Source of the DNA: Corallococcus coralloides
GTDB taxonomy: Bacteria > Myxococcota > Myxococcia > Myxococcales > Myxococcaceae
NCBI RefSeq assembly: GCF_044792175.1
Contig: NZ_CP172866.1
Length of the DNA stretch: 64,000 nucleotides
Direction: 5' to 3' (one strand)
Below the pieces are notes generated by a model, which saw only the letters and a program-made list of their open reading frames with translations, was not told the DNA's origin and did not search any database. The position numbers were made by a program, and so were the translations under genes. Positions 23,499 through 64,000 of this stretch are shown here, one piece after another; within the stretch, counting starts at the first letter, position 1; each line of letters begins with the position of its first letter.

Positions 23499-23511
23499 GG
23501 ATGTCTCCTGT

Positions 23512-28814: not shown

Positions 28815-28857
28815 GAAAACGCCGCCTCGCTTCCGGAGGACCGGAAACGGGCGGCGT
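28815..28857 (-). terminator. Rho-independent terminator of the ABC-F gene
   Basis: The plus strand 28819-28857 reads aa-gccgcc-tcgc-ttccgg-agga-ccggaa-acg-ggcggc-gt. It has an outer stem of about 8 bp and an inner stem of 6 bp. On the minus-strand RNA the hairpin is followed by UUUUCGCG. Confidence 0.45.
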
Positions 28858-28882
28858 AGGCACTGCCAAGAGTAGCGAAGGA

Positions 28883-31887
<3,005 letters not shown>

Positions 31888-40300: not shown

Positions 40301-40666
40301 CAGCACCAGCACCTTGCCCGAGGGAAGGAGCACGGCCAGGGTGATGTTGCCCGTGAGGCTGGAGGTCCCCGCGGAGGCCCAGGTGTTGGTGGCGGGATCG
40401 TAGGTGTCCGCCGCGCTCACGAAGCCGGTCGTGTTGACGCCGTTGACGACGAGCAGCTTCCCGTTGGGTAGCAGGACGGCCGCGTGTTGCCCGCGTGGCG
40501 TCCCCATGGGAGCGGTGGCGTACCAGGCCGGCGGCGCCGCGAGACGGGCGTGCGTGGCGCGGATGCCCTCGGATGCCGCCGGGCGCTCGTTCCCGCCGCA
40601 GGACAGAAGGCCCAGGCTCGCGGCGAACAACAGGAGCCTGCTCCAGACAGCGCGTTGTGACCGCAT
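37367..40666 (-). CDS. Kelch-repeat lipoprotein with C-terminal beta-sandwich (HYR/cadherin-like) domains and MYXO-CTERM-like sorting tail
   Basis: The protein has the lipobox LLSCGG and more than 12 Kelch motifs (…LLPDGRVLV.GG…). Its C-terminus reads GGGCDSTGGGSSALALLAALAAWGTSRRRQ, which resembles a MYXO-CTERM. The gene is 4 nt upstream of the OmpA-TSP3 gene. Confidence 0.8.
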   Translation of the reverse strand: MRSQRAVWSRLLLFAASLGLLSCGGNERPAASEGIRATHARLAAPPAWYATAPMGTPRGQHAAVLLPNGKLLVVNGVNTTGFVSAADTYDPATNTWASAGTSSLTGNITLAVLLPSGKVLVLTDGSQGGRIYDPVANTWSGTGNMASTRSLPTATLLATGQVLIAGGTGGGGVRLATAELYDPATNAFTATGSMSVGRNAHSATRLRDGRVLVVSGFSGSGEVSGADLYNPATGTWSAAAPPLVARHYFTSTLLPDGRVLVAGGFAAGGATSQSELYDPAANTWTATGSLASARAGHMATLLPDGRVLVTGGSVFGSPALTSAEIYDPATGTWTSGGTMSVGRENHTATLLPSGKVFIAGGFSTTPGTTFFAQTEVYDPALSRWSPAGTMGTPRTDSAAALLPSGQVLVVGGRGLFTSSPAAELYDRASNAWTALPDLDVPRERGTATLLHSGQVLVAGGRNVNTSTPNAQRFDPTTNTWLATENMLSPRHLHTATLLPDGRVLVVGGQQNTTVLGSAELYAPDTNTWTAAGSLVAARAGHRAVLLHDGRVLVAGGHNAGGTALASAELYNPANDTWTPAAGLAGARDELTLTLLPSGQVLAAGGISGGTELTSSELYTPGTNTWTSVGALSQPRWLHTATLMTSGKVLVAGGITTNGDYANTAEVYDPLLRAWINVADPTAAGGLFSVALSSGEVLLAGGQEATNAQVYDDTRAQTAWKPTVTNPATLVAACPTVVEGQRFRGISGGSGGNSADSPTDFPLVRLQAAEGGRLWTLPSSNTSDTRATVTVPADVPLGTYALSVFANAIPGGRMVTVVANQPPTAADQTVTIQKDTPTALALAGTDPDVGQVLTWTIVTPPQHGTLGTSAQGNLEYTPAAGYVGPDSFTYRVRDCATDSNVATVTLNVTEDVVAPTLTCPANLVVEATDPDGAIVTYDPAVLEPAGLPVSYSQPSGALFPIGTTTVTATSTGLTCTFTVTVQDTTAPTLTCPADITVAPDTQVTFTPTATDAVTANPTVTSSPESGSAFAPGATQVTVTATDEAGNTAQCTFQVRVQAQVVEIAGGGCDSTGGGSSALALLAALAAWGTSRRRQNPARGN

Positions 40667-46121: not shown

Positions 46122-47015
46122 ATGTCCATCGTCATCAACACCCCGAACGGCAACATCGGTCGTCCCCTCGTGGAGAAGCTCTTGAAGGCGGGCCGCAAGG
46201 TCACCGTCATCTCGCGCACGCCGGAGAAGGTGGCGGACCTGGTGAAGCTGGGCGCGAAGGTGGTGCAGGGCTCCATCGAGGAGCAGGCCACGCTGGACGC
46301 GGCGCTCGCGGGCGCGGAGGCGCTGTTCTGGCTGTCTCCGCCCGCCATCCGCCCGGACTTCCACGACTGGGCGAAGGCCAACGGCCAGCGGGCCGCGGAG
46401 CGCGTGAAGGCGCACGGCGTGAAGCGCGTGGTGATGCTCTCCAGCGTCGGCGCGCAGAGCGGGGCGGGCACCGGGCCGGTGTCCGCGCTGAAGTCCATCG
46501 AAGAGGCCTTCCAGGCGGCGGCGCCGGACGTCGTCAGCCTGCGCGCGGGCTTCTTCATGGAGAACCTGCTGCGCGACGTGCCGGGTCTGGCGAAGGCGGG
46601 CGCGCTCTACAGCTCGAACCCGGAGACCCAGCCCTTCCCCATGGTCGCCACCGCGGACATCGCGGCCAAGGCCGCCGAGTTCCTGTTGGACCCTTCATGG
46701 ACGGGCCACCGCTACGTGGGCGTGCACGGGCCCAAGGACCTCACCTATCCGGAGGTCGCCAGCATCCTCACCCAGGTGCTGGGCCAGCCCGTGAAGTACG
46801 TGCGGGTGGGGCTGGACGACCTGCGCAAGGGGATGCTGGGCGCGGGCATGCCCGCCTTCGCGGCGGACACCTTCGTGGAGATGTACGGCGCCATCCAGGA
46901 CGGGCGCATGGCTTCGGCGGAGCCGCGCTCGAAGGAGACCACCACGCCCACCACGCTGGCGGAGTTCGCCAGCACCGTGCTCAAGCCGGCGGTGGAGCGG
47001 GCGCGCGCGTCCTGA
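46122..47015 (+). CDS. NmrA-family NAD(P)-binding protein
   Basis: The protein starts [32 protein letters not shown], a Rossmann GxxGxxG-like motif. It is divergent from the LysR gene. Confidence 0.8.
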
Positions 47016-47154
47016 CAGCGCCCGCCTGTTCGCTCGTATCAGCAACAGGAGGGGGAGACGTGCGCTGCCCCGCCCCCTCCCTGACAACTGGTGCACGATG
47101 GGGGCCCGCCGGAGATTGCTCCGGTACGGTCACCCCACCGAAGACGAGCGCACC

Positions 47155-49923
47155 ATGGACGAGCAACGCCCCGCCAAGCCCCCGGCCCGGACGGACCCCT
47201 CCATCGACCTGCTCCACCAGCGGACCCGTCAGCCGCTGGAGGTCATCTTCTCCCCCCGCAGCGTCGCGGTGGTGGGGGCGAGCGAGCGGCCCGGCAGCGT
47301 GGGCCGCACCGTCCTCTGGAACCTCATCAGCAGCCCGTTCGGCGGCACCGTCTACCCGGTGAACCCGCAGCGCCCCAACGTGCTCGGCATCAAGGCGTGG
47401 CCCTCCCTGCGCGCGCTGCCGGAGCCGGTGGACCTGGCCGTCATCGTCACCCCCGCGAAGTCCGTGCCGGCCATCATCCGCGAGTGCGCGGAGGTCGGCG
47501 TCAAGGGCGTCATCATCATCTCCGCGGGCTTCAAGGAGACGGGGCCGGAGGGCGCGAAGCTGGAGCAGGAGGTGCTGCACATCGCGCAGGCCGCGAACCT
47601 GCGCATCATCGGGCCCAACTGCCTGGGCGTGATGCGCCCCACCAGCGGCTTCAACGCCACCTTCGCCAAGGGCATGGCCCGCCCCGGCAACGTGGCCTTC
47701 ATCAGCCAGTCCGGCGCGCTGCTCACCTCCATCCTCGACTGGAGCCTGCGCGAGGCCGTGGGCTTCAGCGCCTTCGTCTCCGTGGGCTCCATGCTGGACG
47801 TGGGCTGGGGAGACCTCATCGACTTCCTCGCGGATGATCCGATGACGCGCTCCATCCTGCTGTACATGGAGTCCATCGGCGACGCGCGCGCCTTCCTGTC
47901 CGCCGCGCGCGAGGTGGCCCTCACCAAGCCCATCATCGTCATCAAGGCCGGCCGCACCGCGCAGGCCGCGCAGGCCGCCGCGTCCCACACCGGCACGCTC
48001 GCCGGCAGCGACGAGGTGCTCTCCGCCGCCTTCCGCCGCGCGGGCGTGCTGCGCGTGGACTCCATCGAGGACCTGTTCCACATGGCGGAGGTGCTGGCCC
48101 GCCAGCCCCGTCCCTCCGGCCGCAGGCTCACGCTGCTCACCAACGCGGGCGGCCCCGCGGTGCTCGCCACGGACGCGCTCGTGTCCGGTGGCGGGGAGCT
48201 GGCCGTGCTGTCCGACGACACCCGGAAGCAACTGGACGGCTTCCTGCCGCCGCCGTGGAGCCACGCCAACCCGGTGGACATCCTGGGAGACGCGGACGCG
48301 GAGCGCTACGCGAAGGCGCTGGAGACCACCGGCGCGGACCCCAACAGCGACGGCCTGCTCGTCATCCTCACCCCGCAGGACATGACGGAGCCCACCCAGA
48401 CGGCGGACCGCCTCAAGGGCTACGCGAAGCTGCCCGGCAAGCCCGTGCTCGCCAGTTGGATGGGGGGCTCCGAGGTCGCCGCGGGCGAGCGCATCCTCAA
48501 CGACGCGGGCATCCCGACCTTCGGCTATCCGGACACCGCGGCCCGCGTCTTCAACTACATGTGGCGCTACTCGGACAACATCGCCGGGCTCTATGAGACG
48601 CCCACGCTGGCGGAGGAGCCCACCGGCGGAGGCCGCGACGTCGCCCGCGCCCTGGTGGACGAGGCCCGCGCCTCCGGCCGCACCCTCCTGTCCGAGTACG
48701 AGTCCAAGCGCCTGCTGGCCGCCTACGGCATCCCCACCGTGGAGACGTGGCTCGCCTCGACGGAGGACGAGGCGGTGGAGAAGGCCCGCGCGCTGGGCTT
48801 CCCCGTGGTGCTCAAGCTGCACTCGCTCACGGTGACGCACAAGACGGACGTGGGCGGCGTGCGGCTGGACCTGCGCGACGAGGCCCAGGTGCGGGACGCG
48901 TACCGCGCCATCCGCGACGCGCTCGCGGAGCGGGGCCTCCAGGACGCGCTCCAGGGCGTCACCGTGCAGCCCATGGCGAAGCTGGACGGCTACGAGCTCA
49001 TCCTGGGCAGCAGCCTGGACGCGCAGTTCGGGCCGGTGCTGCTCTTCGGCGCGGGCGGCACGCTGGTGGAGGTGATGCAGGACCGGGCCCTGGGCCTGCC
49101 GCCCCTCACCACCACGCTGGCGCGGCGGATGATGGAGCGCACGCGCATCCACCACGCGCTCAAGGGCGTACGCGGCCGGGCCCCCGTGGACCTGGGCGCG
49201 CTGGAGCGGCTGATGGTGCGCTTCAGCCAACTGGTGGTGGAGCAGCCCCTCATCCGCGAGCTGGACATCAACCCGCTGCTCGTCTCCGGTGAGCGCATCA
49301 TCGCGCTGGACGCGCGCGTGGTGCTGCACCCGCCGGACGTGCAGGCCGCGTCGCTGCCGAAGCTCGCCATCGAACCGTACCCGCACCAGTACGCGAAGGT
49401 GCTCACGCTGAAGAACGGCGAGCAGCTCCTGGTGCGCCCCATCCGCCCGGAGGACGAGCCCGCCATGGGCCGCTTCCACCAGGCACTCTCCGAGCAGACC
49501 GTGTTCATGCGCTACGCGGGCCTGATGAAGCTCAGCCAGCGCGTGGCCCATGAGCGCCTGGCGCGCATCTGCTTCAACGACTACGCGCGGGAAATGGCGC
49601 TCGTCGCGGAGAGGCCGTCCCCGGACGGGAAGGGCGGGGGAGAGATTCTCGCGGTGGGCCGGCTCACGCGCCTGCGCGGCACGAAGGACGCGGAGTTCGC
49701 CATCACCGTCAGCGACACGGCCCAGCGGCTGGGCCTGGGCACGGAGCTCTTGCGGCGGCTGGTGGACATCGGGAAGGACTGGGGCCTGCGCCGCATCGTC
49801 GCGGACATCCTCACGCGCAACCGCGGCATGCAGGCCGTCAGCAAGAAGCTGGGGTTCACGCTCCTGGAGCACGAGGAGCTGGCCCCGGACATGGTCAAGG
49901 CCGTGAAGGTGCTCAACGGCTGA
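47155..49923 (+). CDS. Bifunctional NDP-forming acyl-CoA synthetase (CoA-binding + ATP-grasp) / GNAT acetyltransferase, Pat-like protein lysine acetyltransferase
   Basis: The CoA-binding region reads [24 protein letters not shown] and the CoA-ligase region reads IIGPNCLGV. The ATP-grasp segment has [18 protein letters not shown]. The C-terminal GNAT region has ...[19 protein letters not shown]. Confidence 0.85.
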
Positions 49924-53318: not shown

Positions 53319-53480
53319 CGGCGGTCCAAATTCCTACTAAACCGGGCCGACACGATTGGAAAGCACCTGGGTCGAATCCTCCCCCACGGGTCGTCTGCGC
53401 AGGCTCGGGCTCTCAGGTTCTGAGAGCCCGAGCTGTATTTTTATCCAGAGACCGAAAAAGCGCTCCGGACGGTGCGCGGG

Positions 53481-54116
53481 CTACGGCGTGGTGGGCGGCA
53501 GCACGATGTTCGACTGGATGTCGCTCGCGGAGTTGATGTGCATCTGCACGGCCTGCCGCTCGGCGGTCGCCTCCTGCGCCAGGGCGGTGTTCTTGATCTG
53601 CGGCGACAGCAGGCTGTCCGCGAGGAAGGCGACGCGCGCGTGCGCGTTGAGCTGCGCGCTGATCAGCGCCAGGTCGAGCCCGGTGCCGACGGGCGGAGCC
53701 TCCGGACTGGAGAGGATCCGCATCATCTCCTGGACCTCCGCCTGCAACTGGAGGCTCAGCGCGCTGTCCTCGGGCGTGATGCCCTGGGCCGCGATCAGCG
53801 CGTCCAGGCGCTGCTTCACCGCGGTGTGCTCCGTCACCATCTGGTTGTTGAAGTCGCGCACGGCCTGCTCGGTGGCGAGCGGCGCGGCGTACTGGCCCAG
53901 CATCACCTCGCCCTCGTTGGCCACCTGCAGGATGCGGGCGATCTGCGCGTCGTTGAGCGTCAGCACCACGCCCGCGTCGGTGCCCGAGTCCGGGGCCTGC
54001 TGCTGTGGCGCGTCCTGCGGCGTCGGCTCCTTCACTTCGCTCCCACACCCGTAGCCCAGCGCCAGCGCCCCCGCCAGCAGCGTCCCCATCCAGAATTTCG
54101 CTGTCCGCATGTCCAA
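53481..54116 (-). CDS. DUF4142-like lipoprotein
   Basis: The protein has a signal peptide with lipobox LGYGC, and its remaining region is DUF4142-like (LNDAQIARILQVANEGEVMLGQ). Confidence 0.55.
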   Translation of the reverse strand: MDMRTAKFWMGTLLAGALALGYGCGSEVKEPTPQDAPQQQAPDSGTDAGVVLTLNDAQIARILQVANEGEVMLGQYAAPLATEQAVRDFNNQMVTEHTAVKQRLDALIAAQGITPEDSALSLQLQAEVQEMMRILSSPEAPPVGTGLDLALISAQLNAHARVAFLADSLLSPQIKNTALAQEATAERQAVQMHINSASDIQSNIVLPPTTP

Positions 54117-54342
54117 ACCCCCGTGAATGTCGCGGGGGCAGGATGGGGAGGCCCTCCAGCCATGGCCATGCGCGCTTCAGCCGTTGCCACTGTGCCCGTG
54201 AGCACGGACCGGGCAGGCAGGCCGTCAGGCGCGACCCGCCGGCCAGACCCACCAGGATGTTTCACGGGCATGTTTCAGCCCGCGTCATGACGGAGGAGGT
54301 TGGATCCAGAGCGGCGAGCAGGCAGTTCTCAGACATTGGAAA

Positions 54343-55485
54343 ATGCGTCGCACGTCGCGCAACGTTGACAGTGAAACACCGGATGGTGTCTCGTGTTTCC
54401 AGATGGACGGTTCACGGCGCGTCACTGTTCTCTCCTTGCACCGGGGTTCCGCGAGCATCGTCCGCGCCCTGGTGCCCCACTTCGATCTGCCGCCGGCGGA
54501 GCTCGCCGCGAGGCTGTTCCGCGCCCCCGCGGTGCTGGCGTCGGGCCTGCCGGAGGACCTCGCCCGGGGCCTGTCGGAGGTGCTGGGCAACGCGGGCCTG
54601 CGCGTGGTCGTGGAGCCGGATGACGCGCCCCTTCCTCCTCCCGCCGGGCAGACCTACGACGTGGCGCTGTACGTGCGTGACGGCGGGCGCTTCCGCGAGG
54701 TCTGCGCGGAGCTGGCGGCCGTCCTGGGCTGTCCCCTGGCGGACGCCGCCTCGGCGCTCTGCGCCACGCCGCCCACGGTGGTCGGCTCCGTGTCCCAGGC
54801 CACGGTGGACGCGCTCCGGGAGCGCTTCGCCGCGCTGGGCGCGGAGGTGGACGCGAGCCATCCGCCCACCGCCCGCTATGACGTCTTCGCCACGGAAACG
54901 GTCAGCCTCGCGATGGTCCGCTCGGTGCTGGAGGCGCAGGGCGTGACTCCGGGCGAGCCGCCGCTGGTGGCCCGGGACCTCTCGCACGAGCAGGCGGAGC
55001 GCGTGTGGCGGGAGCTGGGAGCGCGGGGTGGGGTGCGGTTGTTGGATCACGCCTTCCAGCGCTTCGACGTCAGCCTCCTGGAGGCCCCCGCCGACGCCGG
55101 CTTCCCGGAGCTGCTGGTGCGGGAGACGGGCATGCCCCCGGCGCTGGTGCCGAAGGTGCTCAAGCGGCTGCCGGTGGTGCTGCACACGGGGCTGTCGCGC
55201 GTGGACGTGGTGGCGCGCACCGCGCCCCTGGAGGCCGCGGGCGCGAAGCTGGCCGTGCAGCTCATCAACTTCCGCAGCTTCCGCCTGACGGTGGAGGACT
55301 CGAAGGACCCCGCCGTGGCCGCGGAGCTGCTGTCTTCGGGGCTGGGGCTGCAAGCCAACGAGGCGCGCACCGCGCTCTCCCGGCTGCCGCATACCTTCCA
55401 GGCCACGGTGGGGGACACGCGCGCGCGCTGGCTCGTCGCGGAGCTGCGCGCGCGGGGCACGCGGACGTCGCTGGTGTCCCAGTGA
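54343..55485 (+). CDS. Protein composed of about five tandem ribosomal L7/L12 C-terminal-domain-like repeats
   Basis: Each roughly 70-aa unit aligns to the L7/L12 CTD segment [30 protein letters not shown]. Examples are APAVLASGLPEDLARGLSEVLGNAGLRVVVE, TPPTVVGSVSQATVDALRERFAALGAEVDA and MPPALVPKVLKRLPVVLHTGLSRVDVVARTAPLEAAGAKLAVQL. The start is uncertain (ATG 54343 or 54403). Confidence 0.55.
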   Translation: MRRTSRNVDSETPDGVSCFQMDGSRRVTVLSLHRGSASIVRALVPHFDLPPAELAARLFRAPAVLASGLPEDLARGLSEVLGNAGLRVVVEPDDAPLPPPAGQTYDVALYVRDGGRFREVCAELAAVLGCPLADAASALCATPPTVVGSVSQATVDALRERFAALGAEVDASHPPTARYDVFATETVSLAMVRSVLEAQGVTPGEPPLVARDLSHEQAERVWRELGARGGVRLLDHAFQRFDVSLLEAPADAGFPELLVRETGMPPALVPKVLKRLPVVLHTGLSRVDVVARTAPLEAAGAKLAVQLINFRSFRLTVEDSKDPAVAAELLSSGLGLQANEARTALSRLPHTFQATVGDTRARWLVAELRARGTRTSLVSQ

Positions 55486-56030
55486 GCTCGCTCGCGCTGC
55501 ACTTCCGCGTGGCGGAGCAGGGCAAGGTGTTCGCGCTGGCCGGCCGGCATGACGAGGCGCTGCGCCACTACCGGGAGGCGCTGCGGCTGGCCGCGCTCCA
55601 GGGCGGCTCCGACGTCTGCCAGCGCCACTATGCGTGGTGCGTGCTCGAGTCGCTGGAGCGCTCGGGGGCCCACGAGGCCGTCATCTCCTTCTGCCTGCGC
55701 GTGGAGGCCCACTACCAGCAGCAGCCTCCCACGAGCGACCTGGCCCGTCAGGACCTGGCCGCGCACCACGAGCGGCACGGCCTGGCGCTGGCGAAGCTGG
55801 GGCGCCTGGCCGAGGCGCGCACGCGGCTGGAGTCCGCGGTGGCGCTGGCCGGCGCCGGGCGGCTCCCGCTGTCGGAGCGGGTGCTGGGCTGGGCGCGCAC
55901 CGGACTGCACGTGGACGCGCGCCGCATCACGCTGGAGCAGGACCGTCACGCCTACTGGGTCGTCCGTCCCGACACCGTTCGTCCCGACATCGCCGTCGCA
56001 CTTCCTCCCGTCGCCGCACCCTTGGGGTAG
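55482..56030 (+). CDS. TPR-like helical protein
   Basis: The GTG start overlaps the upstream stop (GTGA). The protein has ALAGRHDEALRHYREALRLAALQG, a TPR-like motif. Confidence 0.5.
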   Translation: MSSLALHFRVAEQGKVFALAGRHDEALRHYREALRLAALQGGSDVCQRHYAWCVLESLERSGAHEAVISFCLRVEAHYQQQPPTSDLARQDLAAHHERHGLALAKLGRLAEARTRLESAVALAGAGRLPLSERVLGWARTGLHVDARRITLEQDRHAYWVVRPDTVRPDIAVALPPVAAPLG

Positions 56031-56033
56031 ACC

Positions 56034-58130
56034 ATGCCGAAAGCAGGGAAGATCCTCGCGGATCTCAACATCTCCGACTTCATCCGGGACATGGGGCTCG
56101 CCATCGCCGAGGCCCAGACCAAGCTGGACACCAACAGCGTGGATCAGACGCTGCGCATGGGGCAGACCGTCCTGCCGGGCATGACGCAGAACCTGCTGGC
56201 CCTGGGGTTGCGGCCGGCCTTCTACCACTTCCAGTACGCCGACCTGGAGGTGAACCTCAACGTCTACTACTCGACCACCATCGACGTGGGCGCCAACTTC
56301 AACTACGACAACGAGAACGAGTCGAGTGAGTACAGCCTCGAGACGTCCTCCGCCAGCGGCAGCGCCACCCTCACGGTGCAGGACGGCGAGGGCATTCCCC
56401 CCTACGCCTGTCTGGCGTTGGTGGCCAACGCGCCGGGCCACCTCACGGTGGGCACCACCAGCTACGCGCTGGACGGCGGCGTGGGCCCCAACAGCAGCGG
56501 CCTGCCCGTCACCCGCCAGGACACGCTGTGGGAGACGGCGCAGGAGCTGCTCGTGGCCCTGCGCAACAACTCCGTCTGGACGAACCAGGCCGCGGGGGAC
56601 CTGCAGGGCGTCTTCATGGACTGGGAGATGCAGTCGGGCGTCACCGCCAGCACCAACCGCCCGGACCTCTACGCCATCAACCGCTCGGTCATCACCGTGC
56701 GGACCTCGCCGCAGGCGGCGCCCGGCGACAACCTGGTCATCGCGCGGCTGGGCAGCGTGACGCCCGCGCCCGCGCTGCTGCTGCCGGCCACCAACGGCAC
56801 GCGCTACACCAGCACCGCGGCGACGGTGGGCGCGGCGCTGGCGGACATCGGGCAGCAGGTGGACCCGGCGGCCTTCGTCGTCGTCTCCGGCGCTGACTGC
56901 AACCGGGCCATCTACTTCGACACCGACGTCCACGACGTGCCCACCACCACCTACGGCACGGACCGCGAGCCCTCCGCCATCCTCGACGCGGTGGCGGCGC
57001 TGCTGGCGGAGCACCCGTCCGCCTCGCTGGACCTGGAGGGTTGGGCGGATCAGCGCACGCCGCCGGCCCCCGGCTACAACCAGCGCCTGTCGCAGCGGCG
57101 CGCGGACTTCGTCCTGCGGGCGCTGACGTCGCGGGGCGTGGCGGCCAGCAGGCTCAAGGCCCGGGGCATGGGCGCGACGGTCAGCTTCAGCAGCTCCGAC
57201 CTGGCGGCCAACCGGCGCGTCGTCTTCCAGTTCTCCGGCGTGCCCGCGTCGCTGGTGGCCCGCACCGGCGCGGCCACGGCCGCCTTCGACCCCACGGGGA
57301 CGGACCGGGAGGCCCGCATCGTGCCGCGCACGCGCGCCGCCGCGAACGCGCCCACCACGGCCGTCGTCACCTTCCGCGGCACGGACTTCACCCAGGGCAC
57401 CGCGTCCCAGGGCACCACCTTCGCGGTGGGCGCCACCGCGGAGTCCACCGCCGCCAACCTGGCCCGCGCCATCCGCGACGCCAACGCCAACACCGCCTTC
57501 GGCGCCTTCGCGCGCGGGGACCGCGTCTACCTGTACGGCACCGGTGACCACGCCCTGTTCACCCTGTTCGCGCGCACGCCCACCGCGCCGGCCCTGTCCG
57601 CGGCGGGCTCCATCCGCGTGGCCCGCCGCTTCGGTGACGGCCGCCCGCCGGCCTCGCCCCAGCCGCGCGACACCGTCGTCATCGACAACGTGCAGTTGGT
57701 GGCCGTGGAGGCAGGCGTCGCCCCGCAGCCGGGGCAGTTCACGCTGGGGGTGACGGCCGCGGACACGGCGCGCAACCTGGCCGCCGCCATCACGGCGGGC
57801 TCCAGCTCCGGCGTGCTGGCCGCGGGCCTCCAGGCCCAGTCCGCGGGCAACATCGTCACCGTCTCCGGCCCCTCCGGCACCATGCTGGGCACCAGCAACC
57901 CCGCCGCGTTCCTGCTGTCGGCCAACCGCATCGCCGGCAAGCCGTCCGCGGACCGCGAGGAGAGCTCCGAGCGCGAGCTGCGCGCCCTCAACGTGGATGC
58001 GCACGCTTCGGTGAAGTACGAGATGAGCGTGTCCGGCAGCTCGACCATCAAGGCCCGTCTGGTGGCGGTGCCCGCGCCGCCCCAGTTCCTCCAGGCCATC
58101 GGCGACTACCTCGAACGCTGGTACCCGTAA
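56034..58130 (+). CDS. Large member of a paralogous family (N-terminal ...AIAEAQ..LD motif) fused to an OmpA-like peptidoglycan-binding module
   Basis: The N-terminus reads ILADLNISDFIRDMGLAIAEAQTKLDTNSVDQ...LGLRPAFYHFQYADLEV, matching the family motifs. The middle reads LDLEGWADQRTPPAPGYNQRLSQRRADFVLRALTSRGVAASRLKARGMG, an OmpA C-terminal-like core. There is no signal peptide. Confidence 0.7.
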   Translation: MPKAGKILADLNISDFIRDMGLAIAEAQTKLDTNSVDQTLRMGQTVLPGMTQNLLALGLRPAFYHFQYADLEVNLNVYYSTTIDVGANFNYDNENESSEYSLETSSASGSATLTVQDGEGIPPYACLALVANAPGHLTVGTTSYALDGGVGPNSSGLPVTRQDTLWETAQELLVALRNNSVWTNQAAGDLQGVFMDWEMQSGVTASTNRPDLYAINRSVITVRTSPQAAPGDNLVIARLGSVTPAPALLLPATNGTRYTSTAATVGAALADIGQQVDPAAFVVVSGADCNRAIYFDTDVHDVPTTTYGTDREPSAILDAVAALLAEHPSASLDLEGWADQRTPPAPGYNQRLSQRRADFVLRALTSRGVAASRLKARGMGATVSFSSSDLAANRRVVFQFSGVPASLVARTGAATAAFDPTGTDREARIVPRTRAAANAPTTAVVTFRGTDFTQGTASQGTTFAVGATAESTAANLARAIRDANANTAFGAFARGDRVYLYGTGDHALFTLFARTPTAPALSAAGSIRVARRFGDGRPPASPQPRDTVVIDNVQLVAVEAGVAPQPGQFTLGVTAADTARNLAAAITAGSSSGVLAAGLQAQSAGNIVTVSGPSGTMLGTSNPAAFLLSANRIAGKPSADREESSERELRALNVDAHASVKYEMSVSGSSTIKARLVAVPAPPQFLQAIGDYLERWYP

Positions 58131-58139
58131 GGAGTCCCC

Positions 58140-58643
58140 ATGCCCGGAAACAACACCACGCAGGGCCAGCGCGCGATGATGACGGTGCTGGACGCGCCGC
58201 TGCCCGAGCTCATCGAGCGGCTCGGGCGCGCGGTGGCGGACGCGCAGCACGCGCTGGACGTCAACTCGCTGGACATCGCCAAGCGCATGTCCGAGCGCAC
58301 CGTGGACCTGGGCGACGGGCAGTTGTGGAGCCTGCTCGCGCTCGGCTTCACGCCCACGTTCTACGCCTTCGCCGAGGCCACGCTCGAGGCGAAGCTCACC
58401 TTCACCATCCGCGAGTCCACGGAGTTCTCCGTGGGCGGCGGCGCGACGGGCGGCATGGCCGGCATCTTCTCCGTGACGGTCAACGCCGAGTACAGCCGCA
58501 AGTACGGCTTCGAGGTGCAGGGCGCCAGCTCCATCGCCGCGCGGCTGGTGTCGCTGCCTCCGCCCGCGCGCCTGCACCAGTTGCTCAACGAGATCGCCGC
58601 CCAGCCGCCGCTCCCCGCGGCCTCCACCAATACCTCCGCCTGA
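58140..58643 (+). CDS. Paralogous family member (small)
   Basis: The protein has LIERLGRAVADAQHALDVNS...LGFTPTFYAFAEATLEAKL...SIAARLVSLPPPA. Confidence 0.6.
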   Translation: MPGNNTTQGQRAMMTVLDAPLPELIERLGRAVADAQHALDVNSLDIAKRMSERTVDLGDGQLWSLLALGFTPTFYAFAEATLEAKLTFTIRESTEFSVGGGATGGMAGIFSVTVNAEYSRKYGFEVQGASSIAARLVSLPPPARLHQLLNEIAAQPPLPAASTNTSA

Positions 58644-58665
58644 AGCGCGCAAGGATCCAGACACC

Positions 58666-59238
58666 ATGCCCAACGTCGGTCAGGAACTGCTGAACGTCCC
58701 CATGGGGGACATGATTCGTGAGATGGCGACCGCCATCGCGGAGGCGCAGCTCGAGCTGGACAAGAGCGGGATGCTCGTCGCGGAGATGATGAGCGGCGAG
58801 GCGCTGCTGCGGGACGCCGACGGGAACATCCAGCTCGACGGCTCCGGCAAGCCCATCCGGGTGGACACCAAGGTGTCCTTCGCGGGCACGCCCTCGTCCA
58901 TGATGGAGCTGGGCTTCGCGCCCAACTTCTACCAGTTCGTGGACACCATCATCGAGGTGAAGATCGCCATCAAGATGACGGAGAGCACGGAGAGCAAGGT
59001 GGCGACGCAGAGCACCTCGCGGACGGCCGGCGGGCTGCGCCTCTTCAAGCGCGGCGGCGCGCCCCAGGCCGTGGTGACGACCGTGGACGCCAGCTACACG
59101 CGCAAGTACGACTACAGCGTGGAGGGCTCCAGCCTGCTGCGCACCAAGCTGGTGCCGGTGCCTCCGCCGGCCCTCTTCGAGGAGCGGGTGCGCGCGCTCA
59201 TCGCGTCCAGGGCCGGCACCACGCCCACCACGAAGTAG
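58666..59238 (+). CDS. Paralogous family member
   Basis: The protein has LLNVPMGDMIREMATAIAEAQLELD...LGFAPNFYQFVDTIIEVKI...YSVEGSSLLRTKLVPVPPPA. Confidence 0.65.
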   Translation: MPNVGQELLNVPMGDMIREMATAIAEAQLELDKSGMLVAEMMSGEALLRDADGNIQLDGSGKPIRVDTKVSFAGTPSSMMELGFAPNFYQFVDTIIEVKIAIKMTESTESKVATQSTSRTAGGLRLFKRGGAPQAVVTTVDASYTRKYDYSVEGSSLLRTKLVPVPPPALFEERVRALIASRAGTTPTTK

Positions 59239-59256
59239 CCCGGGAGAGCGCGCACC

Positions 59257-59847
59257 ATGCCTACCAACTCCATTGGTCAGGATCTGCTCAACGTCCCCTT
59301 CGGGGAGATGGTCCGCAACCTGGGCAACGCCATCGCGGATGCCCAGTACGCCCTGGACAGCTCCTCGCTGAAGATCGCCCAGCTCATGGCGGGCTACCGC
59401 ATCGACGACAGCGGCAACGCCGTGCGGGACGGGGCCGGCTTCGTGAAGCTGGGGACCACCGAGTACCCGCTGCTCCTGCTCGGCTTCACGCCCACGTTCT
59501 ACCAGTTCGTGGAGACCATCATCGAAGTGAAGATGGAGATCTCCATGCACGAGTCCACCGATGACTCGACCCAGACGCGCGACCGCAAGGTGGACCGCGA
59601 CAAGGGCATCCTCACCACGCTGGTGAAGGGCCACAAGAGCCACGTCACCACCGTCACGGCCAAGCACTCGCAGAAGTACAGCTATTCCGCCGAGGGCTCG
59701 AGCCTCATCCGCACCAAGCTGGTGCCCATTCCCCCTCCGGCGGCGCTCCAGCAGATCTGCGCGGAGATCGCCAAGGGCCTCAAGGGCACCGCGGAGGGCG
59801 AGGCCGTCAGCGGGAAGATCGACACCGCCGTGGGCAACGTCACCTGA
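59257..59847 (+). CDS. Paralogous family member
   Basis: The protein has LLNVPFGEMVRNLGNAIADAQYALD...LGFTPTFYQFVETIIEVKM...YSAEGSSLIRTKLVPIPPPA. It is about 40% identical to the preceding gene product. Confidence 0.65.
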   Translation: MPTNSIGQDLLNVPFGEMVRNLGNAIADAQYALDSSSLKIAQLMAGYRIDDSGNAVRDGAGFVKLGTTEYPLLLLGFTPTFYQFVETIIEVKMEISMHESTDDSTQTRDRKVDRDKGILTTLVKGHKSHVTTVTAKHSQKYSYSAEGSSLIRTKLVPIPPPAALQQICAEIAKGLKGTAEGEAVSGKIDTAVGNVT

Positions 59848-59865
59848 CGCCAAGGGGCGCCGCGC

Positions 59866-60804
59866 ATGTCACACGTCCGTTGGGAAGACCTGCTGGAGGA
59901 GGACGCCGCCGGGGCCTCCGACGCCGCTGGCGCGTCCGCTCCTGCTCCAGGAGCGGACACGCCCGTGCCGTCGCTGGAGCAGGTGGCCGCCAGCGACCCG
60001 GAGCTGGCGGCGCTGCTGAAGGAGCGCCGGCAGCTCGAAGACACGATGAAGGCGCTGAGCGGCGTGCAGGAGGCGCCCGTGGACGAGCGGCTGGCGAAGC
60101 AGTTCCCCGTCGTCCAGCACACGCCGGAGTCGCGCATCGCGGAGCGCAAGCAGCACGAGCGGGACACCGCGCGGCGGCTGCTGGAGCAGAAGCTGTACGC
60201 CCGGCGCCGGACGGAGGCGGAGGAGGCCGAGCGGGTGGAGGAGCTGCGCCGCGAGCGCCTGCAGGCGGGGAAGGCGGCCCGGCGTCAGGCGCAGAAGCAG
60301 CAGACGCTGCGCCAGCAGTGGGCGCGCAAGGCGCGTGAGCGCGCGAAGCTGGCCACGCGGCTGGCGGAGCGCGCCCTGGAGTCCCCGGGCCGGGGCCGCA
60401 TGAAGCTGGGGGAGCTGGGGTCCGCGACCCGGCGGTTGGCGGACGCGGCGGAGGAGGCGCGCTCGGTGGCGCGCAGGCCCCTCGCGCTGGAGAAGGGCCA
60501 GACGCTGCCCTCGCTCGGGCAGGTGGGCCGGGCCCTGGGGGGACGCGGCGGGCTCACGATAGGGAAGGTGGAGAAGGGGGTGGCGGTGGCGCGCGAGCTT
60601 CGGGGGATGGATCCCCGCTCGCTGGACACCGAGGCCCTGATGATGCGCGGACTGGCGATGGCCGGCATGGACATGGAGTCCATGGAGCAGCAGATGGACA
60701 TGGAGATGGAGCGCGCCGGCATGGGCATGGACGACATGGACGCGCGCGACACGGCACGTGACGCGCGGCGGGAACGCGGGCGCCAGGGAGCGCGGGATGA
60801 GTGA
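59866..60804 (+). CDS. Glu/Arg/Ala-rich coiled-coil protein with Met/Asp-rich C-terminal tail
   Basis: The protein has charged heptads (ERRQLEDTMKAL..., RRRTEAEEAERVEELRRERLQAGKAARRQAQKQQ). The tail reads MDMESMEQQMDMEMERAGMGMDDMDARD. Its stop overlaps the next start. Confidence 0.5.
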   Translation: MSHVRWEDLLEEDAAGASDAAGASAPAPGADTPVPSLEQVAASDPELAALLKERRQLEDTMKALSGVQEAPVDERLAKQFPVVQHTPESRIAERKQHERDTARRLLEQKLYARRRTEAEEAERVEELRRERLQAGKAARRQAQKQQTLRQQWARKARERAKLATRLAERALESPGRGRMKLGELGSATRRLADAAEEARSVARRPLALEKGQTLPSLGQVGRALGGRGGLTIGKVEKGVAVARELRGMDPRSLDTEALMMRGLAMAGMDMESMEQQMDMEMERAGMGMDDMDARDTARDARRERGRQGARDE

Positions 60805-61462
60805 CACGACACAGCAGGCGCAGGAGTTGTTCGGCACGCTGGACGAGTACCTGCTCGAGCTGGCCGACGGCCTGGCGAAGGCCCAGCAGGAGCTGGGGGG
60901 CATCTCCGCGGCGGGCGCGCCCGGCCGGCAGTTCACCTACTACGTGCCGAAGCTGGAGTTCGAGCTGCGCATGGACCTGCGGGTGGAGACGTCCACCACC
61001 ACCACCGGACCGGTGGCCAACGGGAAGATATTGAAGATGCGGCCCGTGCGGCTGGCGGACGTGGCCTCTTCGCAGACGAAGACGGAGATCGTCAGCGTGA
61101 TCCGCGGCAGCTTCGTCGCGGTGCCGGCCAACGAGGGCCTGCCTCCGGTGGTGCTGGACGCCCGCTGCGTCATCGGCGACGGGGGCGTGCCGGGCGTGGT
61201 GGTGCGCGTGCGCAACGCTGCGGGCGAGGCCCTGCCGGGCGTGGAGGTGGAGTTCAACCTGGACCGCAGGACGACGCAGTCGCTGTCCGGCGTGGCGCCG
61301 CTCGCGGGCACGGACGTGGTGCTCGCGGTGGTGAGGACGGACGCGGCGGGGGAGGCGCGGACGACGCTGCGCGTGGCGGCCGGCGAGCAGGCCCGCATCC
61401 TGGCGCTCACGGTGGACGCCGCGTCGCGGACGCTGGCGCTGTCCTGTGAGGTGGCTCGATGA
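60797..61462 (+). CDS. Family-related protein (N-terminal ...LAKAQQEL motif) with transthyretin/CarboxypepD_reg-like beta-sandwich domain
   Basis: The protein has MSDTTQQAQELFGTLDEYLLELADGLAKAQQELGG...YYVPKLEFELRM. The C-terminal half reads GVVVRVRNAAGEALPGVEVEF...RTDAAGEA. Confidence 0.55.
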   Translation: MSDTTQQAQELFGTLDEYLLELADGLAKAQQELGGISAAGAPGRQFTYYVPKLEFELRMDLRVETSTTTTGPVANGKILKMRPVRLADVASSQTKTEIVSVIRGSFVAVPANEGLPPVVLDARCVIGDGGVPGVVVRVRNAAGEALPGVEVEFNLDRRTTQSLSGVAPLAGTDVVLAVVRTDAAGEARTTLRVAAGEQARILALTVDAASRTLALSCEVAR

Positions 61463-62190
61463 AGGTCCGGGCCGTGTTCCACAAGGCCACGGGAGTCCCC
61501 GTGGCGGGAATGAAGGTGGCGTGGTGGGTCCCCGCGAAGACGGGCACCTTCGAGCTGCGCGACACCGGGGTGACGAACGAGGCGGGCGTGCTGGAGATGG
61601 AGGTCAGCAGCGCCACCTTCGGCTCCCACCTCCGGCTGGGCTCCGCCGGGGTGGCCACCTTCCCGGTGAAGATGAGCAGCACCCTCATCGACTACGGGAC
61701 GATGGTCGTCCTGGAGCCCGCGAGGGAGGACGTGCGCGCCGTGTCCTCCGCCGCGGTGGAGCCCACCCAGGAGCCCGCCCTGGAGCAGGGCACGTCCCTG
61801 GTGCTGTCCGACAAGCTGAAGTCGGCGGGCCAGCAGATCGAAGCGGTGCGCGCGTCGCTGACGACGGTGCGGTTGAGCACCGTCCGCGTGCGGTGGATGG
61901 AGACGACGCCCGAGGGCGTGACGGAGGCGGAGGCCCAGTTCGTGGAGCAGTCTCCCGCCGCGCCCGAGACGGGCGACGCGCCCGCCCGCGAGGTGCCGGA
62001 CTTCCGGGGGCTGACGGCCTCGGCGGCCCGGCGGCGCGCGGCGGAGTCGGGGCTGCGGGTGGACCCGATGCCGCTCTTCGTCAAGGAGCCCGGGCAGTGG
62101 GGCCGCGTGCTGCGGCAGGTGCCGGAGCCGGGCAAGCCGCTCGCTTCGGGCCCCGTGCAGTTGATCATTGGCCAGGCGATGGAGGGCTGA
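61459..62190 (+). CDS. Beta-sandwich (CarboxypepD_reg-like) + PASTA-like domain protein
   Basis: The ATG overlaps the upstream stop (ATGA). The N-terminus reads GVPVAGMKVAWWVPAKTGTFELRDTGVTNEAGVLEMEV. The C-terminus reads VPDFRGLTASAARRRAAESGLRV...GRVLRQVPEPGKPLASGPVQLIIG, a PASTA-like topology. Confidence 0.55.
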   Translation: MKVRAVFHKATGVPVAGMKVAWWVPAKTGTFELRDTGVTNEAGVLEMEVSSATFGSHLRLGSAGVATFPVKMSSTLIDYGTMVVLEPAREDVRAVSSAAVEPTQEPALEQGTSLVLSDKLKSAGQQIEAVRASLTTVRLSTVRVRWMETTPEGVTEAEAQFVEQSPAAPETGDAPAREVPDFRGLTASAARRRAAESGLRVDPMPLFVKEPGQWGRVLRQVPEPGKPLASGPVQLIIGQAMEG

Positions 62191-62193
62191 ACC

Positions 62194-62862
62194 ATGGCGG
62201 ATTCGAATGACGTCCCCCAGTTGGAGGCGCTGAGCGCGCCGCTGGGCGCGTTGATCTCCTCGGTGGGCCGCGGCGTGGCGGAGGCGCAGCGGGAGCTGGA
62301 CGCGGCGACCATCGAGCGGATCCGCGAGCTCTACGCCTCGGACGAGGACCTGGCGGTGGAGCTGCAGCGCATCGGCTACCGACCGACCTGGTACCACATC
62401 CCCGAGGCCGAGGCGGAGATCGCCGTGGCGCTGTCCATCACCTCGGAGGAGCGGACGCAGGGGCGCACGCGCCTGAAGATGTACGGCGCGCCCCTGGACG
62501 CCAGCTACACCAACCGCTTCGCCTACAGCCTGACGGCGCAGTCGCGGCTGAAGTTCCGCGTGGTACCGGTGCCTCCCTCGCCCCAGGCGGAGGCGCTGGT
62601 GGTGGTGCCGGCGGTGGTGGGGAAGACGGTGGGGGACGCGCGGGCGCTGCTGTCCGCCATCGGCGTGCCCCACCGGTTCCCCAGCGGCGCGGCGGACGCC
62701 GCCCTGGTCCTCTCGGCCTCGGCCGAGCCGGGGACGCTGCTGCCGCGCGGCACCGAGTTGGTGCTCACCGTGCAGACGACCGGCGGAGGGAAGCTCCCGC
62801 CCACCGGAGTCCTCACCCGCTCGCCCGTCCTGGAGACCGTGGCCGCCGAGCCCTTGAAGTGA
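62194..62862 (+). CDS. Paralogous family member fused to C-terminal PASTA-like domain
   Basis: The protein has LGALISSVGRGVAEAQRELD...IGYRPTWYHIPEAEAEI...YSLTAQSRLKFRVVPVPPSP. It then has VVPAVVGKTVGDARALLSAIGVPH...PGTLLPRGTELVLTV. Confidence 0.6.
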   Translation: MADSNDVPQLEALSAPLGALISSVGRGVAEAQRELDAATIERIRELYASDEDLAVELQRIGYRPTWYHIPEAEAEIAVALSITSEERTQGRTRLKMYGAPLDASYTNRFAYSLTAQSRLKFRVVPVPPSPQAEALVVVPAVVGKTVGDARALLSAIGVPHRFPSGAADAALVLSASAEPGTLLPRGTELVLTVQTTGGGKLPPTGVLTRSPVLETVAAEPLK

Positions 62863-62881
62863 ACGGACGGTCCGTGCCGCG

Positions 62882-63316
62882 ATGGAGGCCCCTGGCGCGA
62901 TGAGTGACGCCATCGACCTGGAGGCCCTGCTGGTGGACCTGCGTGAGTCGCTCGCGCGGGTCCAGGCGCGGCTCGGCGCCGGCCCCATCGTGCTGGGGCC
63001 GGTGGAGCTGGAGCTGCACGGCGCGGTCACCGCGGACGGGACGGGGATGCACTTCACCCCCGGAGGCCCCGGCGAGGTGCGGGCCGTGTTCGTCCAGCAG
63101 GGCCCCGAGGCGGCACCGCCCCCCGCGCCGGAGCTGCTGGGCCTGACGCGGAGCGCCGCCGTGCGCAAGGCCCGCCTGGCCGGAGCCTCGCTGGAGGTGA
63201 CGGACGTGCCCTGCCTGTCGCCGGAGCAGGCGGGGCGGGTGTGCTGGCAGCGCCCCGCGGCCGGAGCGCCCCTGACGGAGGGTCACATCGCGGTGGGACT
63301 GTACGTTACCGGCTGA
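62882..63316 (+). CDS. Small protein with N-terminal helix and C-terminal PASTA-like domain
   Basis: The protein has DLEALLVDLRESLARVQARL. It then has PELLGLTRSAAVRKARLAGASLEVTDV...GRVCWQRPAAGAPLTEGHIAVGLYV. The start is ambiguous (62882 or 62900). Confidence 0.45.
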   Translation: MEAPGAMSDAIDLEALLVDLRESLARVQARLGAGPIVLGPVELELHGAVTADGTGMHFTPGGPGEVRAVFVQQGPEAAPPPAPELLGLTRSAAVRKARLAGASLEVTDVPCLSPEQAGRVCWQRPAAGAPLTEGHIAVGLYVTG

Positions 63317-63366
63317 GCCGCGCGATTTTTCACGGAGCCCCGGCGCCAACCCCTAGAGTCGGGCCC

Positions 63367-64000
63367 GATGAGTGCCTCCGCCGACACCCGCGCCCCGCTC
63401 GCCGCCCTGCTGCCCAAGCCCGGCGAGCCCCCACTCGACGCCGACGAGATCCTCAACCGCTTCGTGAGCTACGTGGCCACGAACGGCTTGAGCCTGTACT
63501 CCGCCCAGGAGGAGGCCATCCTGGAGCTCCTGAGCGACAAGCACCTGTTCCTCAAGACGCCCACGGGCTCCGGCAAGTCGCTGGTGGCCATGGCGCTCCA
63601 CTTCAAGGCCATGGCCGAGGGCAAGGTGTCGTTCTACACGTGCCCCATCAAGGCGCTGGTGAACGAGAAGTTCTTCGCGCTCTCCAAGGCCTTCGGCCCG
63701 GAGAACGTGGGCATGCTGACGGGCGACGCGTCCATCAACCGCGAGGCGCCCATCCTCTGCTGCACGGCGGAGATCCTGTCGAACCTCGCGCTGCGTGACG
63801 CGTCCGCGCGCGTGGACGCGGTGGTGATGGACGAGTTCCACTACTACTCCGACAAGGAGCGCGGGGTGGCCTGGCAGATTCCGCTGCTGGCGCTGCCCAA
63901 GACGCAGTTCCTGCTGATGTCCGCCACGCTGGGCGACACGCACGTCATCGAGCAGAGCCTGGAGAAGCTCACCGGCCGCGAGGTGGCCACGGTGCGCAGC
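63367..64000 (+). CDS. DEAD/DEAH-box (DExH) helicase, N-terminal part (gene continues beyond window)
   Basis: The protein has [20 protein letters not shown] (motif I), [11 protein letters not shown] and [11 protein letters not shown] (DExH motif II). No stop is reached before the window ends. Confidence 0.8.

Follow-up and report, generated by a model that had tools for sequence, protein, structure and literature searches.

Introduction

Trypco2 (PF19631) was originally recognised as a domain that co-occurs with trypsin in conflict systems (Kaur et al., 2020, PMC7159879), and Pepco, which is the same as Trypco2, has been described as a 117-amino-acid (aa) protein without a signal peptide (Evans et al., 2025, bioRxiv 10.1101/2025.11.14.688446). 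Its N-terminal amphipathic helix and beta-strands assemble into a constitutive 9-10-mer barrel, resistant to sodium dodecyl sulfate (SDS), with a charged lumen and a hydrophobic exterior, which perforates the membrane from inside; protease removal of a proline- and charge-rich tail turns this barrel into a membrane pore, and the proteases associated with Pepco have been reported fused to peptidoglycan-binding sensors (bioRxiv 10.1101/2025.11.14.688446). Here we compare with Pepco and other described systems an operon of Corallococcus coralloides, which consists of 11 genes (g1 to g11, 54343-63316, + strand) in a 64,000-nucleotide (nt) stretch of contig NZ_CP172866.1 (NCBI RefSeq assembly GCF_044792175.1); this whole stretch is referred to as the window.

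The operon encodes a family of paralogs with a predicted helix-plus-long-hairpin fold, together with OmpA-like and PASTA modules, and its first ten genes recur in one order across distant phyla. The family and the cluster lack tested defining features of every system considered, namely Pepco modules, gas vesicles, phage tails and extracellular contractile injection systems (eCIS), beta-barrel pore-forming toxins, and the defence systems in PADLOC. We regard the cluster as new at the system level, and its building block may be a distant, much enlarged relative of Pepco.

A Paralogous Family in the Operon

A jackhmmer search of ~7,000 local sequences, seeded with g6 (59257-59847, 196 aa), recovered g5 (58666-59238, 190 aa; E 2.5e-63), g4 (58140-58643, a short paralog of 167 aa; E 1.8e-48), g3 (56034-58130; E 6e-40) and g10 (62194-62862; E 1e-37). 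The large paralog g3 matches in two separate pieces, residues 2-115 and 630-694, and therefore has its core split by a ~515-residue insert at the tip of the hairpin described below. The gene g8 (60797-61462), which encodes an N-terminal helix and hairpin followed by an immunoglobulin (Ig)-like domain resembling Big_1, was recovered weakly (E 1.2e-4); a hidden Markov model (HMM) of g8-type orthologs matches 34 main-family proteins at E<0.01, and hhalign aligns the g8-type profile with the family at E 2e-3 over the N-terminal helix, which supports g8 as a divergent family member. Both g9 and g11 look alike to the family by eye, yet neither jackhmmer nor hhalign detects them, and we do not count them as members. 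A preliminary description of the window, made from its letters alone, had grouped seven of the encoded proteins by eye; of these g3, g4, g5, g6 and g10 clearly belong together and the protein starting at 60797 (g8) does so weakly, whereas the one starting at 62882 (g11) is undetected by jackhmmer.

The three motifs on which that grouping rested occur in the same order in an alignment of six sequences, and they are invariant or nearly so in 40 homologs from several phyla, so that they are not the low-complexity coincidences once allowed for. In total, 23 alignment columns are invariant in the paralog family. One search found 1726 homologs of g6, another found 1122 clusters at 50% identity among 1.8 billion representative proteins, and g6 is ~50% identical to homologs from Bacteroidota and Gammaproteobacteria. 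Pfam, NCBIfam, PHROGs and PADLOC contain nothing that matches the family, its members carry the public names 'hypothetical', 'OmpA family' or 'PASTA domain-containing', and we found no database model, public annotation or searchable paper that describes the family or the cluster. At the sequence level, no solved homologs were found for the family, g1, g8, g9 or the cassette protein m4 introduced below. The earlier statement that the paralogs match no described family is thus borne out in profile databases, with the footnote that divergent members match Trypco2/Pepco weakly and below threshold.

A Ten-Gene Cluster Conserved Across Phyla

To follow the family beyond Corallococcus, we scanned one genome per species from 185,579 species, which yielded 293 relatives, and compared the best 79 loci by clustering all open reading frames within 10 kb of each. 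This survey of taxonomic spread and conserved neighbours, of a kind that the preliminary description had proposed, showed that a ten-gene order recurs throughout these loci. They include Myxococcota, Alphaproteobacteria, Gemmatimonadota, Opitutales (Verrucomicrobiota), Nitrospirota, Latescibacterota and Desulfobacterota, as well as Gammaproteobacteria (Halomonas, Marinobacter, Psychromonas, Pleionea and others) and Bacteroidota (Dokdonia, Fluviicola, Flavobacterium and others), and thus span at least eight phyla; all are labelled as Gram-negative lineages except for two doubtful labels of metagenome-assembled genomes (MAGs). Culturable carriers of the cluster are Corallococcus, Halomonas, Flavobacterium, Psychromonas and Undibacterium.

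The order begins with an L12-like protein, a TPR protein and a large paralog (positions 1-3), continues with paralogs of ~160 aa, ~260-300 aa and ~180 aa (positions 4-6), and ends with a coiled-coil protein, a g8-type protein, a g9-type protein and a paralog with a PASTA domain (positions 7-10). In the window these positions are occupied by g1 (54343-55485), with five tandem alpha/beta domains resembling the L7/L12 C-terminal domain (CTD) and ClpS, by g2 (55482-56030), a small TPR protein of 182 aa, and so on to g10, which has a C-terminal PASTA domain and is the last gene of the conserved core. The g2 gene is kept at position 2 in 67 loci, g3 orthologs of 563-742 aa hold the same operon position in other phyla, g8 is conserved in 73 loci, and g9 (61459-62190), which encodes an N-terminal Ig-like domain, a linker and a C-terminal PASTA domain, has orthologs of 350-450 aa. 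Position 7 is held in the window by g7 (59866-60804), a highly charged coiled-coil protein of 312 aa with an isoelectric point of 9.2 and a Met/Asp-rich tail, and in other loci also by a protein of ~300 aa (families F6, F10 and F16); judged by sequence, g7 is a fast-evolving occupant of a conserved operon position. No other conserved neighbour gene was found near the cluster in the 79 loci.

When the window paralogs are compared with loci from Gamma- and Alphaproteobacteria, Bacteroidota, Gemmatimonadota, Nitrospirota and Opitutales, the best score of each falls on the gene in the corresponding position, with 112-142 bits for g4 (nine distant loci), 143-166 bits for g5 and 88-196 bits for g10; g4, g5 and g6 are among the most conserved subunits. 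This positional orthology implies that the duplications are ancient and predate the spread of the cluster, so that the tandem expansion proposed earlier is correct in an ancient sense and not as a recent event. It also implies that each paralog has a distinct, non-redundant place or role in one complex. The operon lacks any enzyme and each paralog keeps its own position across phyla, in agreement with the earlier impression of a multi-subunit structural assembly.

The end of the cluster is variable. In the window it is formed by g11 (62882-63316), a small lineage-restricted protein of 144 aa that myxobacterial loci and very few further ones contain; elsewhere, extra paralogs are fused at the C-terminus to Laminin_G_3, a concanavalin-like lectin domain, or to unknown domains of ~400 aa (L081 1598-3406; L083 147-1970; L082 705-3860), which suggests a variable binding subunit. 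The N-terminal part of a DEAD/DEAH (Ski2/Suv3-like) helicase lies 51 nt downstream of g11 (63368-64000, + strand) and had been taken as the end of the operon. It adjoins the cluster in Corallococcus only (L001, L003) and is absent within 6 kb downstream of the cluster in Archangium, Myxococcus and all other phyla; we regard it as a lineage-specific, probably unrelated neighbour and not as a component of the system. The flanks of the cluster are unrelated between loci and made up mostly of housekeeping genes, and the distribution is patchy and looks horizontally transferred, in self-contained cassettes.

Predicted Fold and Coevolution

We modelled g6 with AlphaFold2 and 40 homologs; the mean predicted local distance difference test (pLDDT) score is 69.5, with values of 76-89 in the helix and the hairpin base and below 55 in the distal hairpin. 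The model comprises an amphipathic helix (residues 15-45) and two small hairpins (47-71), followed by a long hairpin (81-109 and 131-158), the PPP motif (159-161) and a C-terminal helix (162-184). The top Foldseek matches of this model, none of them significant, are the stems of aerolysin, iota, CDTb, anthrax protective antigen (PA) and lysenin, and further non-significant matches are the tail knobs of phi29 and P68 and the FliF collar. All top matches are barrel-forming hairpins; an aerolysin-type toxin, a FliF ring and a tail-knob fold were each considered and set aside, as only these non-significant hairpin matches were obtained for them.

Column-wise hydrophobicity across the 40 homologs alternates strictly in strands 89-97 and 133-145. 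One strand face is hydrophobic or aromatic, and the other carries the invariant residues E90, K92 and K140 and the nearly invariant E146, R152 and K154; the distal hairpin is Ser/Thr-rich in the homologs, with conserved Gly and a hydrophobic tip. In g4, the hairpin is amphipathic throughout, has a Gly-rich tip and measures 12 residues less than in g6. More generally, the distance from the FYQF strand to PPP (g6 residues 81-161) clusters at 68, 72, 80, 84 and 96 residues, so that hairpin length changes mostly in steps of four residues and the sidedness of both strands is kept. Additional modules enter this core at three sites: the hairpin tip (the 515-aa OmpA-containing insert of g3), the stretch linking the helix to the first strand (where orthologs at position 5 have an insert), and the region after PPP (PASTA, Big_1-like, Big_2 or LamG).

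An exploratory mean-field direct coupling analysis (DCA) of 544 sequences (effective number, Meff, 322) recovered the small hairpins and placed the helix antiparallel along the hairpin base. The main hairpin register (i+j = 238-244) contains 22 pairs above the 99th percentile where 2.3 are expected. A second antiparallel register (i+j = 225-232), offset by ~12 residues, contains 13 pairs against 2 expected. These two registers cannot coexist in one chain, which suggests that strands of different subunits pair with a stagger of ~12 residues or else that the chain adopts two conformations. The second register suggests the former, which we treat as a lead only.

Peptidoglycan-Binding Modules Without Export Signals

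Known proteins with OmpA-C-like or PASTA domains reach the periplasm or the cell surface via signal peptides, lipoboxes or membrane anchors. Like Pal, MotB, YiaD and OmpA, g3 contains a canonical OmpA-like domain (at residues ~290-400), and like PBP2x and PknB, g9 and g10 contain PASTA. The OmpA domain (PF00691) of g3 scores 43.4 bits against a Pfam cut-off of 27.2, the canonical GWADQRT...NQRLSQRRA motif is visible, and the region matches sequences in the PDB including YiaD and Pal (E 2e-8 to 1e-6); the OmpA core reported earlier for the protein encoded at 56034 is therefore secure. PASTA (PF03793) exceeds the gathering score of 23.2 bits in g9 (30.7) and g10 (31.8), whereas the match in g11 (19.7 bits) falls under it; of the three PASTA-like proteins counted previously, two thus stand. 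Big_1 matches in g8 and g9 are sub-threshold (E ~2e-4). The TPR-like nature of g2 (TPR_12, 31.7 bits in Pfam) and the L7/L12-CTD repeats of g1, which has the expected fold of that domain, were also recognised correctly at the outset. Several RefSeq records name g2 'peptidylprolyl isomerase'; a peptidylprolyl isomerase (PPIase) domain is undetectable in it, and the name looks like a propagated annotation error.

The same modules occur at the same subunits elsewhere. OmpA is also matched at position 3 in Psychromonas and Flavobacterium, and PASTA orthologs at positions 9 and 10 score 24.7-34.7 bits, with PASTA-bearing g9 orthologs in Psychromonas, Flavobacterium and Pleionea. Since Gammaproteobacteria and Bacteroidota carry OmpA and PASTA on the corresponding subunits, these modules are core features of the cluster and not local decoration.

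No signal peptide or membrane segment was found in any operon protein or in the Psychromonas, Flavobacterium and Undibacterium orthologs, which extends to other phyla the earlier remark that the proteins with peptidoglycan modules have no recognisable signal peptide; hydrophobic segments and signal-like N-termini are likewise absent, with a maximum 19-residue Kyte-Doolittle mean of 1.47. Unlike Pal, MotB, PBP2x and PknB, the operon proteins thus have no signal peptide, lipobox or membrane anchor, and unlike in Pal, MotB and YiaD, the OmpA module of g3 is inserted at the beta-hairpin tip of an otherwise unrelated family. Domain content suggests an association with the envelope, and the main puzzle is the presence of conserved OmpA-like and PASTA domains in proteins without an export signal. 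Enzyme domains are absent from g1-g11, and no peptidase domain was found in g1-g11, in the conserved neighbours of the 79 loci or in the minimal cassettes described next.

A Five-Gene Minimal Cassette

The only plasmid match of the family, in Sphaerotilus, led to a minimal cassette of five genes, which encode m1 (~95 aa), the full paralogs m2 and m3, the 'mini' helix-plus-hairpin protein m4, and m5, a coiled-coil protein with a C-terminal mini module (L080 8048-10827; L084 7666-10513; L086 7586-10951; L088 7523-10666). Its 768 relatives come from Betaproteobacteria, Chlorobi, Chloroflexi and Dehalococcoidales, Desulfobacterota and Rhodobacteraceae, always with unrelated flanks, and the cassette contains no OmpA, PASTA, TPR or L12-like gene. 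Between Betaproteobacteria, Chlorobi and Chloroflexi, identity is 77-83% for m2, 55-69% for m3 and 26-46% for m1, m4 and m5. Conservation is thus uneven, where a simple recent transfer would leave it uniform. That of m2 is exceptional for an unannotated protein and points to extreme constraint, as expected of a major self-assembling subunit.

Two single neighbours of the cassette hint at a defence-type neighbourhood: an HTH-WYL-WCX regulator follows one copy (L088 11143-12093), and a HepT/MNT toxin-antitoxin pair lies beside another (L086 11712-12264).

Comparison With Pepco and Other Described Systems

The resemblance to Pepco lies mainly in architecture. Neither Pepco nor the family has a signal peptide, and in both an amphipathic helix is followed by amphipathic strands with a charged and a hydrophobic face and then by a Pro-rich segment, a layout that for the family is predicted from the AlphaFold2 model and the 40 homologs. 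The stable beta-barrel has been shown experimentally for Pepco, whereas for this family it is a prediction. We compared sequences using SsPepco from the supplement of bioRxiv 10.1101/2025.11.14.688446 and three Streptomyces plasmid homologs, in addition to the Pfam model (gathering score 24.2 bits). Pfam Trypco2 matches 4 of 24 divergent cluster members, all below threshold (best E 0.0012; m4 13.7 bits), and hhalign against the four Streptomyces Trypco2 sequences aligns the helix and first strand, in the same order, of the g8-type profile (E 8.8e-4) and of m4 (E 5.7e-3). Homology between the family and Pepco is thus possible, and the architectural analogy is close.

The differences are equally clear. 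Pepco is a single 117-aa protein, whereas the subunits here have 167-698 aa and a much longer hairpin; it always lies beside a trypsin- or caspase-like protease fused to a sensor, whereas these clusters are without any protease. Six to eight paralogs in fixed positions, accompanied by TPR, L12-like and coiled-coil genes and fused to OmpA, PASTA and Ig modules, further set the clusters apart from Pepco. Finally, Pepco is prevalent in Actinobacteria and cyanobacteria, while the 79 ten-gene loci are Gram-negative save for the two doubtful MAG labels.

Gas vesicles offer a second comparison. GvpA, GvpJ and GvpM share with the family an alpha-beta-beta-alpha layout and the occurrence of several paralogs in an enzyme-poor cluster, with one extremely conserved major subunit (here m2) and a largely aquatic, patchy distribution. 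However, the cluster has no equivalents of GvpN, GvpF/L or GvpK, and its proteins are 2-3 times larger and bear peptidoglycan-binding modules. A relationship to GvpA was rejected, as hhalign of the family against GvpA gave a probability of 0.2% and no gas-vesicle Pfam hit was found in the cluster.

Phage-derived machines and known defence systems were also searched for. No relatives of the ten-gene or the minimal subfamily were found in 50,697 phage GenBank records or 2.9 million IMG/VR viral contigs, and the sole significant PHROG match in the operon (phrog_7897, function unknown; E 1.3e-10) covers the OmpA-containing region of g3; the suggestion that the operon might be phage-related is not sustained, and an origin from a phage or prophage was set aside. 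Tube, sheath, baseplate and tape-measure homologs, like phage relatives, are missing, and we therefore reject a phage tail, tailocin, eCIS or type VI secretion system (T6SS). PADLOC-DB 2.0 gave nothing below E 0.01 in the operon, and in the minimal cassette only spurious coiled-coil matches to JetC, so that a known defence system is likewise rejected.

Possible Nature of the Complex

All viable readings have in common a hetero-oligomeric assembly held together by the hairpins. The one we favour, with a probability of about one in three, is one in which this assembly is a Pepco-like beta-barrel or tube that acts on the membrane and the cell wall. Six to eight subunits, each with an amphipathic helix, an amphipathic hairpin (~29 residues per strand) and an LVP-x-PPP stop motif, would be made in the cytoplasm, since none carries an export signal, and would co-assemble via their hairpins into a barrel or tube, probably aided by the TPR protein g2 and the five-domain L12/ClpS-like g1. 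The complex would then engage the cytoplasmic membrane and the cell wall, where the OmpA-like module (at the g3 hairpin tip), the PASTA and Ig modules (after PPP) and, at other loci, the Laminin_G_3 lectin modules would anchor it or sense its surroundings. Because Pepco/Trypco2 is the nearest working analogy, we picture a membrane-perforating or channel-forming envelope device and not a metabolic or nucleic-acid system, which might serve either regulated permeabilisation or lysis, or as a standing conduit. The analysis shows the family with its conservation and positional orthology, the domain content without enzymes or export signals, and the predicted monomer fold; that the subunits oligomerise into a barrel or tube, that they act on membrane and cell wall, that g1 and g2 help them, and what physiological purpose this serves we infer from these.

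Several observations weigh against a barrel or tube of this kind. The g6 monomer model has a mean pLDDT of only 69.5, with the distal hairpin below 55, and the DCA is confounded, as the mixture of ancient paralog classes inflates covariation. The link to Trypco2 fails in several searches: no window protein matches it in the Pfam scan, the g5/g6-type and g9-type profiles do not align to it in hhalign, and a home-built HMM of the four Streptomyces sequences matches nothing in the clusters in hmmsearch. A protease or other trigger is encoded in no cluster, PADLOC gives no match, and housekeeping genes make up most of the flanks. The folded ~515-aa insert at the tip of the g3 hairpin could not pass through a membrane post-translationally, which leaves unexplained the path by which a cytoplasm-made OmpA-like domain would reach peptidoglycan. 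Moreover, an offset of 12 residues between the DCA registers is easier to reconcile with a staggered filament than with a closed barrel, and the contrast between m2, at 77-83% identity, and its neighbours, at 27-45%, is seen more typically in structural proteins that form a lattice or filament than in immune effectors.

These last points favour a standing structural polymer (a filament, tube or lattice) over a pore, which would be a new envelope appendage or intracellular organelle; this explanation is tentative as well, and nearly as likely as the barrel or tube. The major subunits would be g4, g5 and g6 (m2 and m3 in the cassette), joined head-to-tail by staggered beta-strand pairing, with g3 as a peptidoglycan-anchoring base, the coiled-coil protein g7 as a ruler or scaffold, and the end-of-operon paralogs bearing PASTA, Ig-like or lectin domains as tip or adaptor subunits. 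In addition to the pattern of major and minor subunits seen in the conservation of m2, m3 and m1/m4/m5, a polymer accords with the fixed gene order and positional orthology, with the tip-adhesin-like character of the variable tail paralogs with Laminin_G_3 or ~400-aa domains, with the chaperone-like TPR and L12/ClpS-like proteins in the cluster, and with the offset of the second DCA register, for which ~12 residues correspond to ~40 A. On the other hand, neither an export route nor a subunit export signal is encoded, so that an appendage on the surface or in the periplasm would have to be secreted by some unknown mechanism, while a polymer confined to the cytoplasm gives no reason for the conserved OmpA and PASTA modules; the relationship to GvpA, moreover, was tested and rejected.

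It is unlikely that the cluster is instead a conflict system for anti-phage defence or stress-induced death that operates without a nucleoside triphosphatase (NTPase) or protease. In such a system, Pepco-like pore formers would be fused to ligand sensors, OmpA-like and PASTA domains for muropeptides and Ig and LamG domains for glycans, and their C-terminal domains, together with the TPR and L12-like proteins, would keep them inactive until cell-wall damage triggers killing. The weak Trypco2/Pepco similarity is in line with this, as are the fusion of Pepco-associated proteases to peptidoglycan-binding sensors reported in bioRxiv 10.1101/2025.11.14.688446, the patchy, horizontally-transferred-looking and self-contained cassettes with unrelated flanks, and the WYL-domain regulator and HepT/MNT pair near two of them. 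However, the absence of PADLOC matches and of any sensor NTPase or protease speaks against it, the cluster does not lie in a defence island, with the nearest defence-type genes of the window 25 kb away, and ten genes that include six ancient fixed-position paralogs of very high conservation are atypical of immune effectors. Very improbable is a phage-derived or bacteriocin-like particle that assembles in the cytoplasm, is released by lysis and binds target cells through its Ig, lectin and peptidoglycan-binding modules: signal-less structural proteins with such modules are typical of virion or tailocin parts, and podovirus tail knobs and phrog_7897 are among the matches (the knobs non-significant), yet neither subfamily has relatives in the phage and viral collections, the paralog family has no PHROG match, and genes for a capsid, portal, terminase, sheath, tube, baseplate or lysis are missing from every cluster and its vicinity.

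In a more far-reaching reading, the cluster and its five-gene minimal relative might represent a previously unrecognised class of envelope machine or organelle: a Sec-independent, enzyme-free, hetero-oligomeric barrel, tube or filament of ancient paralogs with a new helix-plus-long-hairpin fold, which reaches or binds peptidoglycan by a route not explained by the secretion pathways considered and has spread horizontally across more than ten phyla. This wider proposal is less likely than not. If true, it would add a widespread multi-protein bacterial structure undescribed in searchable databases or papers and a new protein fold family of ~1100 clusters at 50% identity, one member of which ranks with the best-conserved non-housekeeping proteins known from comparisons between phyla. 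It would also pose the cell-biological puzzle of how canonical peptidoglycan-binding modules without an export signal meet the cell wall, and possibly extend the principle of the Pepco beta-barrel pore from single immune effectors to large hetero-oligomeric machines.

Operon Structure and Genomic Context

The genes at 54343-63316 are closely spaced on the + strand, lying 3-22 nt apart or overlapping by 4-8 nt, and form a tight operon, as first described. The overlaps at 55482 (GTGA, where the GTG start of g2 overlaps the g1 stop) and 61459 (ATGA) are as originally read, while that at 60797, given as ATGA, is in fact 8 nt long, ATGAGTGA. The stoichiometric co-expression formerly drawn from this arrangement does not follow, as gene spacing alone is insufficient for it. 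Shine-Dalgarno-like sequences precede most of the genes, codon-position G+C statistics back exactly the called frames of g1-g11, and in-frame stops directly 5' of the gene starts exclude hidden N-terminal extensions. The true start of g1 is probably at 54403 or 54436, because public g1 homologs have 349-361 aa. A search of the window from 53400 to 64000 revealed no sigma-70-like promoter, and neither a LexA box nor a sigma-54 promoter was found upstream of g1 orthologs in 64 loci.

The window has a G+C content of ~71%, and its proteins are 99-100% identical to those of Corallococcus coralloides or C. interemptor. Directly upstream of the operon, divergent genes on the - strand, which end at 53481-54116, encode a DUF4142 protein and a Ser/Thr kinase, both unrelated to it. 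In the stretch from 18 to 30 kb, the G+C content dips to 60-65%, and within it 20166-28869 (- strand) resembles a defence island, with a SIR2_2 protein (20166-21893), a protein with DUF4041 and T5orf172 (21933-23558), and a 1785-aa protein with DUF4011, AAA_11/AAA_12 helicase and REase_MTES_1575 domains (23512-28869), followed by an ABC-F ATPase (28883-30718). Also apparently unrelated to the operon are a 1099-aa Kelch-propeller protein with Big_9, cadherin-like and HYR domains (37367-40666, - strand) and a 1042-aa fusion of an ADP-forming acyl-CoA synthetase with GNAT, a Pat-like protein acetyltransferase (46795-49923, + strand).

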